Origin: a virus
Taxonomy: Duplodnaviria; Heunggongvirae; Uroviricota; Caudoviricetes
Length of the DNA stretch: 7,517 nucleotides
Direction: 5' to 3' (one strand)
Virus record (IMG/VR): IMGVR_UViG_3300029816_000066
Coordinates: 1-7,517 of that record
The translations under genes and the position numbers were made by a program. The stretch's first letter is position 1. The number at the start of each line of letters is the position of its first letter. This document shows, piece after piece, positions 2,495 through 7,517 of the stretch. The notes beneath the pieces are model-generated. The model saw nothing but the letters and a program-made list of their open reading frames with translations. It was not told the DNA's origin and ran no database searches.

Positions 2495-2540
2495 AAAGAA
2501 TAAAAAAATCCCGCAGTGATCGCGGACAGGAACTGCGGGA
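2495..2540 (-). terminator. Intrinsic terminator on the minus strand: 8-bp GC-rich stem followed by a U-tract, abutting the I stop codon
   Basis: On the minus strand, TCCCGCAG (2540-2533) pairs with CTGCGGGA (2516-2509), then TTTTTTTATTCTTTTT follows (2508-2493). The 16-nt loop is long and may form extra pairs. On the + strand the same hairpin is preceded by A-runs and has no T-tract, so it acts only leftwards. Confidence 0.6.
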
Positions 2541-2598
2541 GAGTTACGAAGATTAAGTGTAAGGAATTATTCTTATATCACGACAAAAAAATTAACGC
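2495..2598 (-). ncRNA. Candidate small non-coding RNA (~100 nt) encoded in an I-J intergenic insert, transcribed antisense to the tail operon
   Basis: Defined by the promoter at 2605-2632 and the terminator at 2495-2540, both on the minus strand. The predicted transcript (GCGUUAAUUUUUUUGUCGUGAUAUAAGAAUAAUUCCUUACACUUAAUCUUCGUAACUC-hairpin-UUUUUUU) contains no ATG; its GTG and TTG codons each hit a stop within 3 codons. AU-rich body plus 3' stem-loop and poly-U is a typical Hfq-type sRNA layout. TSS is inferred at about 2598, not measured. Confidence 0.45.
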
Positions 2599-2604
2599 AG
2601 AGAA

Positions 2605-2632
2605 ATTATACGCGCCACAGTCAGTTTGTGAA
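2605..2632 (-). promoter_or_regulatory. Sigma70-type promoter on the minus strand: -35 TTCACA, 16-nt spacer, -10 TATAAT
   Basis: Minus-strand TATAAT at 2610-2605 (6/6 to consensus) and TTCACA at 2632-2627 (5/6 to TTGACA), 16-nt spacer. An A/T-rich stretch lies directly upstream (minus-strand GCATAAAAATTCTGAATATC, 2660-2641), resembling an UP element. Confidence 0.6.
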
Positions 2633-2837: not shown

Positions 2838-5800
2838 ATGGGAAAAGGTGGCGGTAAGGCACACACGCCTCGTGAGGCGAAGGATAATCTCAAATCCACG
2901 CAGATGATGAGTGTGATTGATGCGATTGGTGAGGGACCGATAGAAGGTCCGGTGAAGGGACTGCAGAGTATTCTGGTGAACAAAACCCCGCTGACGGACA
3001 CGGACGGTAATCCCGTGATACACGGTGTGACTGCGGTCTGGCGTGCCGGGGAGCAGGAGCAGACACCACCGGAAGGCTTTGAGTCCTCCGGAGCTGAAAC
3101 CGGACTGGGCGTGGAAGTGACGAAGGCAAAACCGGTGACGCGCACCATTACGTCCGCGAACATTGACCGCCTGCGGGTTACCTTCGGGGTGCAGTCACTG
3201 GTGCAGACCACGTCAAAGGGCGACCGTAATCCTTCCTCTGTCCGGATTCTGATTCAGTTACAGCGTAATGGCCGCTGGGTGACGGAAAAGGATGTCACCA
3301 TTAACGGCAAGACCACCTCGCAGTTCCTGGCCTCGGTGATTCTGGATAATCTGCCTCCCCGGCCCTTTAACATCCGGATGGTCAGGGAGACGGCGGACAG
3401 CACCACGGACCAGCTGCAGAATAAGACGCTGTGGTCGTCATACACCGAAATCATCGATGTGAAACAGTGCTACCCGAACACGGCCATTGTGGGGCTGCAG
3501 GTGGATGCGGAGCAGTTCGGCGGCCAGCAGATGACGGTGAACTACCATATCCGCGGTCGCATCATCCAGGTGCCGTCAAACTATGACCCGGAAAAACGCA
3601 CGTACAGTGGTATCTGGGACGGCAGCCTGAAACCGGCATACAGCAACAACCCGGCCTGGTGTCTGTGGGACATGCTGACTCACCCGCGCTACGGCATGGG
3701 AAAACGTCTGGGGGCGGCGGATGTGGACAAGTGGGCGCTGTATGCCATCGGGCAGTACTGCGACCAGACGGTCCCGGATGGTTTCGGGGGGACCGAGCCG
3801 CGGATGACCTTTAATGCGTACCTGGCACAACAGCGTAAGGCGTGGGACGTTCTCAGTGATTTCTGCTCTGCGATGCGCTGTATGCCGGTATGGAACGGCC
3901 AGACGCTGACGTTCGTTCAGGACCGTCCGTCGGATGTGGTGTGGCCGTACACCAACAGCGATGTGGTGGTGGATGATAACGGCGTGGGTTTCCGCTACAG
4001 CTTCAGTGCCCTGAAGGACCGGCACACGGCAGTGGAGGTGAATTACACCGACCCGCAGAACGGCTGGCAGACCTCCACGGAACTGGTGGAAGACCCGGAA
4101 GCCATACTGCGCTACGGACGCAACCTGCTGAAGATGGACGCGTTCGGCTGTACCAGCCGCGGTCAGGCCCACCGTGCCGGGCTGTGGGTGATAAAGACCG
4201 AACTGCTGGAAACGCAGACGGTGGATTTCACGCTCGGGTCACAGGGGCTGCGTCACACACCCGGTGACATCATTGAAATCTGTGATAACGACTATGCCGG
4301 GACCATGACCGGCGGACGTGTCCTGTCCATCGATGCCGCCAGCCGTACCCTGACGCTGGACCGGGAGGTGACACTGCCGGAGACCGGCACGGCCACTGTT
4401 AATCTGATTAACGGCAGCGGTAAGCCGGCGAGCGTGGCCATCACCGCACACCCCGCGCCTGACCGGATACAGGTCAGCACCCTGCCGGATGGTGTGGAGA
4501 CATACGGTGTGTGGGGACTCTCCCTGCCGTCACTGCGTCGTCGCCTGTTCCGCTGTGTCTCCATTCGGGAAAACACGGACGGCACGTTCGCCATCACGGC
4601 GGTGCAGCACGTACCGGAAAAAGAAGCCATTGTGGATAACGGGGCCAGCTTTGAGCCGCAGTCAGGCAGCCTGAACAGCGTTATCCCACCGGCAGTGCAG
4701 CACCTGACGGTGGAGGTGAGTGCAGCTGACGGTCAGTATCTGGCACAGGCGAAATGGGACACGCCGCGGGTGGTGAAGGGTGTGCGCTTCAGTCTGCGTC
4801 TGACCAGCGGAAGCGGAGAAGACAGCCGTCTGGTGAGCACCGCCATCACCGCAGACACGGAGCACCGTTTCAGTGGTCTGCCGCTGGGGGAATACACCCT
4901 GACGGTGCGGGCCATTAACAGCTACGGCCAGCAGGGCGAACCTGCGACCACCACCTTCCGGATTAACGCGCCTGCAAAACCCGCCACCATTGAGCTGACG
5001 CCGGGGTATTTTCAGATAACGGCGGTCCCGCGTCTTGCGGTGTATGACCCGACGGTACAGTTTGAATTCTGGTTCTCAGAAAAACGCATCACGAACACAG
5101 CACAGGTGGAAAAATCTGCCCGTTATCTGGGGACCGGCAGTCAGTGGACTGTCCAGGGGAGCCGGATTAAGCCGGGGACGGATTTCTGGTTTTACGTGCG
5201 AAGCGTCAACCTGGTGGGAAAATCTGCTTTTGTGGAAGCCAGCGGGCAGCCCAGCAATGATGGTGAAGGGTATCTGGAAATTTTCCGGGGGCTGATAGAT
5301 GAGACGCTTCTGGGCCAGGCACTGAAAGAGCGCATTGATGCTTCAGCGCTGCGTACGGAGGTCACGCAACTGGAAGAAGACATCCGTCAGCGGATGGACA
5401 CGGATATCGCAGAAGTGACCCGGAAAATCGGGGAGGCAGAAAACAGCCTCACGCAGCTGGTTGCGAAAAAGAATGAGGACCAGACACTGGCCATCGCGCA
5501 GGTGAGCCAGAAAGTGGACCGGGTGAGCAGTGAAATCTCACAGACTGTCAGCCAGGGGCAGTCAGAAAATGCCCGACAGATAGCACAGGTCCGCCAGTAC
5601 GTGGATAAAAAAGGGAGTGAAATTACCTCGACCACGGATAAAAAACTGGGTGACCAGGCCGTGACCATACAGCAAATCCAGCGGGTTCAGTCAGACACGC
5701 GCAATGAGCTGAATGCCATGTATATGCTGAAGGTGCAGAAAACAAAAAACGGTATTCCCTATGTGGCCGGGATTGGTGCGGGGATTGAGGATGTTGATGG

Positions 5801-6530
5801 TCAGACGCTGAGCAGTATTCTGCTGCAGGCTGACCGTATCGCGATGATTACCCCGGAGAATGGCAACACCACGCCGCTGTTTGTGGCGCAGGGGAATCAG
5901 CTGTTCATGAACGACGTGTTCCTGAAGCGACTGTTTGCGGTGAGCATCACGTCATCCGGCAATCCTCCTACGTTTTCCCTGACGCCGGATGGCAGGCTGG
6001 CAGCCCGCAATGCGGATATCAGTGGAGCCATCACGGCGAATACCGGCACGCTCAATAATGTCACCATTAACGAGAACTGTGTCATCAGAGGGAAACTGTC
6101 TGCAAACCAGATTGAAGGCGATCTCGTTAAAACAGTGGGTAAGGCTTTCCCCCGTGGCTCCCGTGCACCGGAGAGGTGGCCATCAGGGACCATTACCGTC
6201 AGGGTTTATGACGATCAGCCGTTTGACCGGCAAATTGTTATTCCGGCGGTGGCATTCAGCGGTGCCAGACATGAGCGGGAGAATAACGATATTTATTCGT
6301 CATGCCGCCTGATAGTACGGAAAAACGGTGCTGAAATTTATAACCGTACCGCGCTGGATAATACGCTGGTTTACAGTGGTGTTATTGATATGCCTGCTGG
6401 TCGCGGCCACATGACGCTGGAGTTTTCTGTATCAGCATGGTGGGTAAATGGCTGGTATCCCACAGCAAGTATCAGCGATTTGCTGGTTGTTGTGATGAAG
6501 AAAGCCACTGCAGGCATCACGATTAGCTGA
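2838..6530 (+). CDS. J: Central tail fibre / host specificity protein J (lambda gpJ-like), 1230 aa
   Basis: N-terminus [22 protein letters not shown]…[15 protein letters not shown] and many later blocks ([93 protein letters not shown]…[40 protein letters not shown]) match my recall of lambda gpJ. A fibronectin-III-like segment lies at about aa 610-700. RBS GGGGAAGG sits 4 nt upstream of the ATG. Confidence 0.95.
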
Positions 6531-6548
6531 ATTTTATAACCCCAATAC

Positions 6549-6576
6549 GGGCGCCAGAAATGGCGCCTTTTTTATT
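6549..6576 (+). terminator. Intrinsic terminator immediately downstream of J
   Basis: GGCGCC (6550-6555), loop AGAAAT, GGCGCC (6562-6567), then TTTTTTATT (6568-6576). Confidence 0.65.
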
Positions 6577-6597
6577 GCAGAAAAGCGAGAGGTAATT

Positions 6598-7197
6598 ATG
6601 CGTAAATTATGTGCTGTTATTCTGTCCGCAGTAGTCTGGCTGGTTGCCGCTGGTACGCCAGCGAGCGCAGCAGAGCATCAGTCCACACTAAGCGCCGGGT
6701 ATCTTCAGACCCACACTGATATGCCAGGCAGCGATAATCTGAACGGGATTAACGTGAAATACCGTTATGAGTTTACGGACGCGCTGGGGCTGATTACGTC
6801 CTTCAGTTATGCCAATGCTGAGGATGAGCAAAAAACGCACTACAGCGATACCCGCTGGCATGAAGATTCCGTGCGTAACCGCTGGTTCAGCGTGATGGCG
6901 GGGCCATCTGTACGCGTGAATGAATGGTTCAGTGCTTATGCGATGGCAGGTGTGGCTTACAGCCGTGTGTCGACGTTCTCCGGGGATTATCTCCGCGTAA
7001 CTGACAACAAGGGGAAAACGCACGATGTGCTGACCGGAAGTGATGACGATCGCCACAGCAACACGTCTCTGGCGTGGGGAGCTGGCGTGCAGTTTAACCC
7101 GACCGAATCCGTGACCATTGATATTGCTTATGAAGGTTCCGGTAGTGGCGACTGGCGAACGGATGCATTTATTGTTGGTATCGGATACCGTTTCTGA
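6598..7197 (+). CDS. lom: Lom-like outer membrane protein (Ail/Lom/OmpX/PagC family 8-stranded beta-barrel), 199 aa, with signal peptide
   Basis: N-terminal signal peptide (MRKLCAVILSAVVWLVAAGTPASA then AEHQ). Conserved blocks relative to lambda Lom (GINVKYRYE, SVMAGP, SAYAMAGVA, DIAYEGSGSGDWRTD, FIVG(I/V)GY) and a C-terminal aromatic residue (…GYRF) typical of beta-barrel OMPs. RBS GAGAGG sits 5 nt upstream of the ATG. Same position as lambda lom, between J and stf. Confidence 0.9.
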   Translation: MRKLCAVILSAVVWLVAAGTPASAAEHQSTLSAGYLQTHTDMPGSDNLNGINVKYRYEFTDALGLITSFSYANAEDEQKTHYSDTRWHEDSVRNRWFSVMAGPSVRVNEWFSAYAMAGVAYSRVSTFSGDYLRVTDNKGKTHDVLTGSDDDRHSNTSLAWGAGVQFNPTESVTIDIAYEGSGSGDWRTDAFIVGIGYRF

Positions 7198-7302
7198 CAA
7201 CAGACGCCGATTTATCTTCTGTAAATATTGTTATGATACGCAGGTTCATCCGCCTTATGGGGTGAACTGCGTTTGAGGAAACGTAAAGTTACACTGTCCT
7301 GA

Positions 7303-7334
7303 AGCCCGTGGCGTCACTGCTGCGGGCTTTTTTT
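7303..7334 (+). terminator. Intrinsic terminator downstream of lom
   Basis: Imperfect ~11-bp stem with G-U wobbles (AGCCCGTGGCG / TGCTGCGGGCT) around loop TCAC, followed by a T7 tract (7328-7334). Confidence 0.55.
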
Positions 7335-7348
7335 ATTGGTGGAAAAGT

Positions 7349-7517
7349 ATGACAGTAAAAATTTCTGGCGTGCTTAAAGATGGCACAGGAAAACCAGTAC
7401 AGAACTGCACCATTGTGCTGAAGGCCAGACGGACCAGCAGCACGGTGGTGGTGAACACGGTGGCCTCTGAAAATCCGGATGAAGCCGGGCGTTACAGCAT
7501 GGATGTTGAGTATGGCC
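7349..7517 (+). CDS. stf: Side tail fibre protein Stf (lambda Stf / orf-401-like), N-terminal fragment; 3' end lies outside the window
   Basis: Translation MTVKISGVLKDGTGKPVQNCTIVLKARRTSSTVVVNTVASENPDEAGRYSMDVEYG is near-identical to my recall of the lambda Stf N-terminus (MAVKISGVLKDGTGKPVQNCTIQLKARR…NPDEAGRYSMDVEYG). It is missing from the ORF track only because fewer than 60 codons fall in the window. Confidence 0.88.
   Translation, partial: MTVKISGVLKDGTGKPVQNCTIVLKARRTSSTVVVNTVASENPDEAGRYSMDVEYG

Follow-up and report, generated by a model that had tools for sequence, protein, structure and literature searches.

The 7,517-nt stretch analysed here (hereafter the window), from a virus of the Caudoviricetes, holds a canonical lambdoid J-lom-stf segment, a layout which is already known and ordinary (Table 1). 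Within it, the late tail operon has gained lom as an additional gene, which has its own Shine-Dalgarno sequence, a terminator just upstream and a second one before stf. The label of 'moron' that a first-pass annotation gave to lom is the conventional one, and it sits well with HK97, in which stf (19239) comes immediately after J (15141-19031); as HK97 has neither lom nor a terminator-like hairpin between these genes, the hairpins appear to come with lom. The layout is not peculiar to the window: the J-lom-stf (orf-401) region of lambda (NC_001416, 18903-19650) has the same gene order, a hairpin and T-run at both the J-lom and lom-stf junctions, and a ribosome-binding site (GAGAGG) right after the J-lom hairpin, as here, and neither locus has a consensus promoter. 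Nor is the allele a rare one, being found in at least 80 IMG/VR loci at 91% identity or more, which places it among the commonest in E. coli prophages, and the clusters of Lom homologues count thousands of members.

Table 1. Features of the J-lom-stf region, with window coordinates
Feature	Position	Strand	Description
PasB sRNA homologue	~2503-2632	-	in the I-J gap
J (tail tip / host specificity protein)	2838-6530	+	ORF of 1230 aa; Pfam J domains including the C-terminal receptor-binding domain PF12421
Terminator 1	6549-6576	+	stem-loop 6549-6568 (GGGCGCCA-GAAA-TGGCGCCT), then T-run TTTTTTATT; co-inherited with lom
Shine-Dalgarno GAGAGGT	6587-6593	+	10 nt past the T-run of terminator 1, 5 nt before the lom ATG; direct sequence reading
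lom	6598-7197	+	199 aa; predicted Ail/Lom-family outer-membrane beta-barrel precursor
Variable linker, probable module junction	7198-7215	+	first ~15 nt past the lom stop differ between lineages; remaining spacer conserved
Extended -10-like element TGtTATGAT	7229-7237	+	candidate small-RNA promoter; TGnTATAAT in other lineages
Conserved non-coding module, candidate ~95-nt RNA	7243-7337	+	SL1 7244-7267, SL2 7268-7285, single-stranded 7286-7300, then terminator 2
Terminator 2	7301-7337	+	stem-loop 7301-7330 (13 pairs, 7 GC), then T-run, to 7334 in the scan and T7 up to 7337; top-ranked in the window
stf 5' end (side tail fibre, lambda orf-401 homologue)	7349-7517	+	Pfam PF08400 'prophage tail fibre N-terminal', E 1.6e-28

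We took an intrinsic terminator to be a GC-rich stem with a short loop and at least five T directly 3', a description that fits both sites flanking lom. A scan of the whole window returned 17 sites, where shuffled sequences give 6.7 +/- 2.5, and the two plus-strand sites on either side of lom rank first and second, terminator 1 being the second. Its stem of eight pairs, six of them GC, is closed by a GAAA loop and folds at -16.5 kcal/mol (z -3.85). Indeed, across 16 distinct homologous sequences, 95% of the cells pair, four of the eight pairs change on both sides, and none of 500 shuffles match this pattern. The predicted terminator hairpin that had been placed just after J is borne out by scan rank, folding and covariation, and the strong ribosome-binding site some 10 nt beyond it is likewise present, in the 67-bp spacer that separates the J stop from the lom ATG; this Shine-Dalgarno sequence is unchanged in every lom upstream region that was compared, lambda included. 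A hairpin with a T-run lies at the same place in lambda, in Citrobacter and in a lambda-like Lom lineage, with differing stem sequences, and the position is kept across Lom lineages of 43-100% identity. Differing J 3' ends join the lom module approximately 5-10 nt upstream of this hairpin; in the sequences compared, exchange of the J 3' end leaves the upstream hairpin linked to lom.

Terminator 2 folds at -20.5 kcal/mol (z -3.6), and it barely varies among relatives, with one wobble-to-Watson-Crick change only. It had been described as lying just after lom; a strong predicted terminator is indeed present, but it begins 104 nt past the stop codon, where a conserved spacer comes to its close. 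This unusually conserved non-coding stretch is the one new item at this locus. Between lineages, the lom-stf spacer (7198-7348, 151 nt) is 86-92% identical, versus 67-74% for the flanking lom and stf sequences and 40-55% for the third codon positions of these flanks, and a 60-nt core within it is invariant. It is present in 1640 of 5426 complete E. coli genomes (~30%), where it is unannotated, and a search of Rfam returned nothing at E <= 1 across the whole window, spacer included. The corresponding spacer of lambda has 64 nt (type A) versus the 151 nt (type B) seen here, and as both types occur with the same Lom, lom type and spacer type assort independently.

Could this spacer be a gene in its own right? 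It may represent an independent small-RNA gene, driven from the extended -10-like element, starting at about 7243 (equivalent to 1798961 in Sakai and 1470682 in E2348/69) and ending at 7337, or else a small RNA derived from the lom 3'UTR; in both cases, the 7301-7330 hairpin would be the terminator of that RNA rather than of lom. We hold this to be possible, if doubtful. The excess conservation over both coding flanks, the invariant core, the wide distribution in E. coli and the independent assortment from Lom type all point in this direction, as does the sRNA-like architecture of a single-stranded stretch followed by a terminator with a U-tail. The promoter-like element reads TGnTATAAT in four of six variants and TGnTATGAT in two, and is kept whilst n varies; however, with a PWM score of 8.1, the motif alone is not above chance within the window. 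The consensus fold of the spacer shows wobble-to-Watson-Crick changes but no pair that changes on both sides, the lack of any Rfam match also speaks against a small-RNA gene, and a recombination junction or the terminator context might equally account for the conservation. When 7229-7337 was considered as an Hfq-type small RNA, a promoter-like element, a terminator and excess conservation were all present, but no transcript of the spacer was found in those EPEC and EHEC expression tables that were examined. The spacer is likewise absent from the accessible part of the lists of Hfq-bound and newly found sRNAs of EPEC E2348/69, which carries it, and the EcOnc entries examined include no Hfq peak at the spacer of Sakai Sp9.

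Several known candidates were set aside for the identity or target of this stretch. The spacer is not the sRNA PasB, whose homologue lies in the I-J gap, on the minus strand. Neither is it HnrS (EcOnc10-12) or any further EcOnc sRNA from EHEC Sakai: the Sp9 ones sit in the Q-lysis region and not at lom, and there is no sequence match. Pairing of the single-stranded stretch with the region of the stf start codon amounts to 14 nt at 79% and, by eye, is not kept in the PhiR5_1 lineage.

The protein itself is, from its family match and predicted fold, an eight-stranded outer-membrane barrel of the Ail/Lom family with four putative extracellular loops. Lom matches Pfam PF06316 over its entire length (residues 1-199 of 199; 425.1 bits versus a cut-off of 23), and shares with Ail, OmpX, PagC and Rck a full-length match, a signal peptide (residues ~1-24; N-terminus MRKLCAVILSAVVWLVAAGTPASA, then AE) and eight predicted strands. 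These eight strands are those of the AF2 model, at a mean pLDDT of only 61.5, and Lom matches lambda Lom (PDB 9wso_C, E 3e-48), Ail (3qra) and OmpX (1qj8), its conserved C-terminal strands aligning to the latter two, whose L2 and L3 are shorter than those predicted here. Aligned with lambda Lom, it is 43% identical overall and 59% in the membrane strands and turns. Predicted loops L1, L2 and L3 fall to 25%, 18% and 28%, with an 8-aa indel in L1, whereas L4 (EGSGSGDWRTD) is 100% identical; the earlier statement that the surface loops differ substantially from those of lambda Lom thus stands for L1-L3 and fails for L4.

How, then, is lom expressed? The first-pass annotation had seen no obvious promoter in the 67-bp spacer, and this was borne out by both scans that we ran. 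A sigma-70 consensus scan found no plus-strand site anywhere in the window, and a PWM scan of 6200-6597, taking in the 67-bp spacer and the last 400 nt of J, found nothing above chance: the best candidate, CTGATA-17-TGAAAT with an upstream TG (at 6309/6332; 6309-6337), scores 9.15, where the median maximum for a 400-nt shuffle is 8.7. Promoters overlapping terminator 1, whether with a -10 inside the T-run or with TATAAC (6535-6540) as the -10, were rejected, with PWM scores of at most 4.8. The lom relatives pagC, ail and rck are activator-dependent, and a sigma-70 scan would miss promoters of this kind. A PhoP box in J (GGTTTACAGTGGTGTTA at 6368-6384, two mismatches) was attributed to chance, since the window holds two such matches versus 0.94 expected and 50 of 200 shuffles equal this.

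Public transcriptomes of lysogens offer a second line of evidence. Prophage PP6 of EPEC E2348/69 carries a near-identical module, with the same hairpin, a Lom of 90% identity and the same spacer, and there the BaseMean is 2.0 for lom, 15 for J and 7 for stf, versus 482 for the sRNA PasB. For EHEC EDL933, Z1381 has 0-4 reads across 11 conditions, and the lom genes Z1489 and Z2342 are on the list of 'silent genes'. These counts come from few growth conditions and may be depressed, since lom occurs in several copies and reads that map to more than one place can be dropped. The emphasis on lysogenic conversion in the first-pass annotation finds no support for this allele. Classical reports on lambda describe lom as a gene that lysogens express (Reeve and Shaw 1979; Barondess and Beckwith 1990; Chen 2005), from which it follows that lambda, at least, must have some promoter or leak. 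In Osterhout 2007, lom could not be detected in a lysogen of lambda. Where the lom promoter comes from has been a recognised gap in knowledge since 2007 or before.

Taking these elements together, we favour, as the probable though by no means settled explanation, that lom owes most of its transcription to late polymerase under Q antitermination, that the terminators insulate it in lysogens, and that the likely function of Lom is receptor masking or exclusion late in infection. It had been argued that expression in a lysogen needs either a promoter in the 3' end of J or terminator read-through; this logic is sound, but it did not consider transcription as part of the late operon, where Q antitermination would carry the polymerase past both terminators. 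During lytic growth, by analogy with lambda biology (Q and pR' lie outside the window), a Q-modified, terminator-resistant polymerase from pR' would read through both hairpins, and because it passes them, lom would be made as a late gene along with its neighbours J and stf. Within a lysogen, stray transcripts arising in J would stop at the upstream terminator and the downstream one would protect stf; since stray transcription is thereby blocked, lom would remain at or near background unless transcription leaks through. One observation on lambda sits awkwardly with this late-gene explanation, namely that lambda has a better -10-like hexamer (TATTAT) right after a weaker hairpin, which the allele of the window is without.

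It is rather unlikely, in our estimation, that lom instead possesses a weak or conditional promoter in the 3' end of J or over the hairpin and T-run, giving low but meaningful expression in the lysogen by a leak through terminator 1 or by a start just downstream of it, in keeping with the classical lysogenic-conversion view. The reports of lom expression in lambda lysogens, the TATTAT/TATAAA directly after the weak hairpin of lambda, the candidate at 6309-6337 and the activator-dependence of lom relatives would all fit such a promoter, which is compatible with, and not exclusive of, late-operon transcription. However, no candidate, the PhoP-box-like site included, rises above chance; the window allele has TTTATTGCAG in place of the lambda TATTAT; and its hairpin is much stronger, with 8 bp and -16.5 kcal/mol versus 6 bp and approximately -8 kcal/mol in lambda. 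Moreover, J 3' ends are swapped between loci whilst the lom module stays constant, so that a promoter lying within J would be passed on separately from lom, and in the two lysogen transcriptomes lom does not rise above background. It is far less plausible again, to the point of being highly improbable, that the upstream hairpin serves as a 5' leader element (an attenuator or stabiliser) of a transcript starting at the TATAAC -10-like hexamer just past the J stop, and not mainly as the terminator of J: the conservation of TTTATAACCC/TTTATTAACCC ahead of this hairpin in two lineages of Lom and the inheritance of the hairpin with lom would agree with this, but TATAAC lacks the key final T and a -35 partner, scores 4.5 by PWM, far below chance maxima, and is absent in lambda and Citrobacter, and the hairpin with its U6 would end such a transcript after ~30 nt.

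Placing lom amongst the morons described in HK97 and HK022 (Juhala et al. 2000) clarifies what is and is not shared. Like these, lom is an addition between two genes that adjoin each other in a relative, and a predicted terminator lies downstream; unlike these, the defining own promoter was not found at lom, a terminator lies directly upstream instead, and base composition is not distinct from that of the neighbours (GC of 0.51-0.57 for lom versus 0.47-0.58 for the 3' part of J); no compositional signature of horizontal insertion was found at lom. As regards an own terminator, a strong one is present at 7301-7337, but the spacer that holds it assorts independently of Lom type and may be a separate unit. 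As regards expression from the prophage, this is affirmed in the literature for lambda, whereas RNA-seq of EPEC and EHEC places the present allele at background, with the caveat of multi-mapping. The Lom of short-tailed Stx phages (Sepvirinae, e.g. VT2-Sakai and 933W) also belongs to the Ail/Lom family, adjoins tail-fibre genes and precedes a strong terminator, but it is 32% identical, has 244 aa, and its gene follows ~100 nt of AT-rich sequence without a terminator hairpin, i.e. the classical promoter-gene-terminator layout of a moron, which the window lacks. The chromosomal ail of Yersinia has a long AT-rich upstream region, whereas the lom of the window is phage-borne and sits in a late operon.

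A functional parallel may be offered by the receptor-masking proteins Cor (HK022, phi80, N15) and Llp (T5), which are encoded next to receptor-binding genes, as lom is; indeed, the cor of HK022 is an annotated exclusion moron downstream of J, in the position equivalent to lom. Lambda Lom resembles them in that its overexpression protects strongly against lambda-vir and not T7, and a preprint reporting this (10.1101/2025.02.28.640651) also finds its level in lysogens too low to exclude, rising dramatically late in infection. PDB entry 9wso, for its part, contains lambda Lom together with maltoporin LamB, the lambda receptor. Both are recent indications of an action of lambda Lom on the receptor of its own phage, which the first-pass annotation had not taken into account. 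By homology with lambda Lom, the Lom of the window may mask the phage's own receptor, or act in exclusion, late in infection, and a dedicated role in lysogenic conversion is less likely. There are nonetheless differences, as Cor and Llp are small lipoproteins and Lom is a predicted beta-barrel. The receptor-binding domain of J here differs from that of lambda (the C-terminal 230 aa are 54% identical), a point against receptor masking. Furthermore, the window type of Lom occurs with several types of J receptor-binding domain: it accompanies the window type in 79 of 85 loci and is also seen alongside five further domain clusters, and two Lom types share one domain cluster. A strict coupling of Lom type to J receptor-binding domain was set aside, the sample being one selected on Lom similarity.

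Two non-classical readings may be offered for this locus: the spacer (7198-7348) would hold an undescribed small-RNA gene at ~7243-7337, with a TGnTATAAT-type promoter and its own terminator, and Lom would be essentially a late gene whose loops L1-L3 are tuned to mask the receptor of the neighbouring J. We put these forward only tentatively, as conjectures that we would sooner doubt than assert.

The route by which lom is expressed decides between two very different roles, i.e. a change in the phenotype of the lysogen, such as adhesion or serum resistance, and an action that is confined to phage lysis. The evidence points to the latter for this very common allele, which would temper the routine annotation of prophage lom as a virulence factor in E. 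coli. Finally, the conserved spacer and the PasB homologue show that lambdoid prophages carry, among their tail genes, non-coding elements which current annotation overlooks.

The window represents the tail-tip end of a lambdoid prophage, in which homologues of L, K and I are followed by J, lom and the start of stf, and its lom arrangement is lambda's own layout. In lambda (NC_001416), J ends at 18903 and is followed by a hairpin (CGTCCGGGAACGGGCG) with TTTTATTAT and the RBS GAGAGG, then by lom (18965-19585), a further hairpin (AGCCCGCCGGAACCGGTGGGCT) with T6, and stf from 19650; lambda and the window alike have no consensus promoter between J and lom. The region matches 236 phage records, the closest being Escherichia phage PhiR49_2 (98.4%), and the Lom allele, present in at least 80 IMG/VR viral contigs at 91-100% identity, ranks among the commonest Lom types, within homologue clusters that hold thousands of member sequences. 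Among the homologous loci compared (L-numbers), lambda-identical lom loci also occur on low-coverage (~1x) contigs of unrelated assemblies (L093-L103, L100, L104 and others), including Neobacillus, Kitasatospora, Pseudomonas, Shewanella and Bradyrhizobium; such contigs, some of them measuring about 48.4-48.5 kb, are almost certainly lambda DNA contamination.

Features of the J-lom-stf region and of the I-J gap, in window coordinates
Feature	Position	Strand	Description
PasB homologue	2503-2632	-	gap between I (end 2494) and J (start 2838)
PasB homologue promoter	2632-2605	-	TTCACA-16-TATAAT, near-consensus, 11/12
PasB homologue terminator	2526-2510	-	TCCGCGATCACTGCGGG plus T7
J	2838-6530	+	tail tip / host specificity protein
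Terminator 1 stem-loop	6549-6568	+	8 pairs, 6 GC, GAAA loop, then TTTTTTATT
RBS		+	GAGAGGT, 10 nt past first T-run, 5 nt ahead of lom ATG
lom	6598-7197	+	199-aa ORF; PF06316 (Ail/Lom family), full-length match, 425 bits
TGnTATAAT-type element	7229-7237		TGtTATGAT in window; n varies between lineages
Terminator 2 stem-loop	7301-7330	+	13 pairs, then seven T
stf (side-tail-fibre gene), start only	from 7349	+	

The terminator, RBS and lom coordinates of the first-pass annotation, and its description of them, are borne out by the terminator scan, the folding and the sequence itself, except that the second terminator, placed just after lom, starts 104 nt past the stop codon. Terminators 1 and 2 are the top-ranked plus-strand terminator-like sites of the whole window in a consensus scan, with folding z-scores against shuffles of -3.85 and -3.6, respectively. 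The upstream hairpin, within the 67-bp J-lom gap, is real and belongs to lom. Related loci carry the stem variants GGGCGCC/GGCGCC, GGGCGTC/GACGCC and GGGCACC/GGTGCC, and the closing pair turns from A-U to U-A in a lambda-like Lom lineage; when 16 distinct sequences are aligned, pairing holds in 95% of cells and both sides change in four of the eight pairs, a covariation reached by none of 500 shuffles, whilst slid registers were only 37-63% paired. A hairpin and T-run stand at the same place in lambda and in a Citrobacter prophage, with stem sequences unrelated to the window's. Where the 3' end of J has been replaced, the junction falls 5-10 nt upstream of the hairpin and the stretch from hairpin to lom ATG is unchanged, and in HK97, which lacks lom, stf comes straight after J, and the 207 nt between them contain no terminator-like hairpin. 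From the swapped J ends and HK97, lom therefore moves as one unit with its hairpin and RBS.

A promoter inside J, one of the two routes to lysogen expression that the first-pass annotation had proposed, would not be co-inherited with this unit. The built-in consensus scan returned no sigma-70-like site on the plus strand anywhere in the 7.5-kb window, and our own position-weight scan (relaxed thresholds, extended -10 bonus, spacer penalties) found as its best site upstream of lom CTGATA-17-TGAAAT (6309/6332), scoring 9.15 against a median best score of 8.7 in 400-nt shuffles. The claim that the J-lom gap has no obvious promoter therefore holds, and applies to the final 400 nt of J as well, for a scan whose reach stops short of activator-dependent promoters. 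Candidate sites overlapping the terminator 1 hairpin or using TATAAC (6535-6540) scored below 5, and a PhoP-box-like repeat at 6368-6384 was at chance level. The other proposed route, terminator read-through, was soundly reasoned.

Is lom, then, expressed in lysogens? For lambda lom, the literature affirms it. Two public data sets are usable for the window's allele. In EPEC E2348/69, whose prophage PP6 shares the hairpin and the 151-nt lom-stf spacer with the window and encodes a Lom 90% identical to the window's, lom (E2348C_1438) has a BaseMean of 2.0, next to 15.0 for J, 7.0 for stf and 4.8 for I, 482 for the nearby sRNA PasB, and about 200-580 for genes of this region that lie farther downstream (Pearl Mizrahi et al. 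2021, Table S2). In EHEC EDL933, the tail-adjacent lom Z1381 gave 0-4 reads across eleven conditions, as did its neighbours, and two further lom genes are listed as transcriptionally silent; lom is multicopy in both strains, so that multi-mapping may lower these counts, but neighbouring unique genes behave alike. A 2025 preprint (10.1101/2025.02.28.640651) reports that lambda Lom levels from the prophage are too low to exclude and, citing ribosome profiling, that Lom "increases dramatically during late infection". The available expression data for EPEC and EHEC thus weaken the initial emphasis on lysogenic conversion.

Late-operon, terminator-insulated expression of lom is the best-supported reading, and one we consider fairly probable. 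Judging from sequence and covariation, both hairpins would stop ordinary polymerase. The Q-modified late polymerase, in established lambda biology, ignores terminators; Q lies outside the window. As the transcriptomes and the 2025 preprint suggest, lom would be chiefly a late gene and, by homology, Lom may serve to mask, on infected or lysing cells, the receptor that the phage itself uses. Support for this model as a whole comes from the anatomy of the locus together with several comparisons. Overexpressed lambda Lom gives strong protection against lambda-vir and none against T7 (10.1101/2025.02.28.640651); in PDB entry 9wso lambda Lom is accompanied by the receptor of lambda, maltoporin LamB; HK022 has the exclusion gene cor downstream of J, in a position equivalent to lom; and in short-tailed Stx phages lom likewise adjoins tail-fibre genes. 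In the latter (VT2-Sakai, Stx2_06E050 and Lys12581Vzw; L126, L124 and L127), a Lom variant of 240-245 aa is encoded after a tail-fibre gene and two small membrane-protein genes. Its gene is preceded by ~100 nt of AT-rich, hairpin-free sequence and followed by a strong terminator and more hairpins, a regulatory layout that differs from the lambda-type locus.

Divergence of the surface loops from lambda Lom, also proposed at first pass, is confirmed for three loops and fails for the fourth. As the AlphaFold2 model (25 homologues) has a mean pLDDT of 61.5, only its topology was used: eight predicted strands (31-38, 51-60, 65-81, 86-106, 111-135, 141-169, 172-182 and 188-198), with the membrane-proximal ten residues of each taken as transmembrane. 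Overall identity to lambda Lom is 43%, and 59% in strands and periplasmic turns; it falls to 25% in L1 (plus an 8-residue indel), 18% in L2 and 28% in L3, whereas L4 is 100% identical. Across the final 135 aa, the receptor-binding domain of the window's J is ~40% identical to lambda's. This domain type accompanies 79 of 85 window-type Lom loci, in a sample picked by Lom similarity, but five further domain clusters are also found alongside this Lom. The domain is closest to PDB chain "A8 gpJ 713" (9wca; cf. 9wcb) rather than to lambda's wild-type J.

Terminator 2 is part of a spacer that forms a separate unit and can be exchanged: one Lom type precedes either a 64-nt lambda-type spacer (most loci) or the 151-nt form. 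The latter is present in 15 of the 80 IMG/VR loci; of 5426 complete E. coli genomes, 1640 have it, none with an annotation. Between three lineages of the 151-nt form, the first ~15 nt past the lom stop are variable and the remainder is 86-92% identical, compared with 70-74% for the adjacent 300 nt of lom (third codon positions 46-55%) and 67-70% for the first 300 nt of stf (third positions ~40%). Besides the TGnTATAAT-type element, which does not by itself exceed chance in the window, the conserved part includes the terminator and a 60-nt core without any variation. In the consensus fold of this part no pair changes on both sides; two hairpins at the 5' end are followed by 15 single-stranded nt and then by the terminator with its U-tail, the architecture of a small-RNA gene of ~95 nt (about 7243-7337). 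The spacer has no Rfam match, no transcript from it is listed in the portions consulted of the EPEC RNA-seq and RIL-seq tables for E2348/69, a carrier, and no Hfq-binding peak lies in the Sp9 lom-stf spacer of EHEC Sakai among the peaks examined. We regard it as a conserved non-coding module, for which a candidate sRNA gene is our leading, if tentative and rather doubtful, guess.

Both spacer forms share TGTTATGA(C/T)A at the 5' side and AGCCCG...CGGGCTTTTTT at the 3' side, as read from lambda (L001, 1598-1612) and the 64-nt spacers of L084, L122 and others. From sequence, it looks as if the longer form were the shorter one with ~75 nt inserted after a -10-like element and ahead of the terminator; transcription starting from this element in lambda would begin inside the terminator stem. 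In four IMG/VR loci (L018, L023, L053 and L066), the lambda-type terminator is followed by GTGCACAGAAAACCCCCAGCTAGGCTGGGGG... and an unrelated ORF instead of stf, which looks like an insertion or deletion that took away the stf start.

The I-J gap carries a homologue of the Hfq-dependent EPEC sRNA PasB (NC_011601 1466343-1466261). Promoter and terminator are almost identical to those of E2348/69 and the RNA body is ~70% identical; Rfam gave no match. In HK97 this gap holds morons, gp22 and the "reverse moron" gp23. In Table S2 of Tree et al. (2014), Sakai EcOnc22/23/24 are three homologous Hfq-dependent sRNAs of ~85 nt from prophages Sp15, Sp14 and Sp11; close to PasB in size, they might be its EHEC counterparts.

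To conclude, the lom locus is a textbook lambda locus with a very common allele, and as such already known. What is worth keeping is the over-conserved 151-nt spacer within the lom region and, outside it, the minus-strand PasB homologue between I and J.
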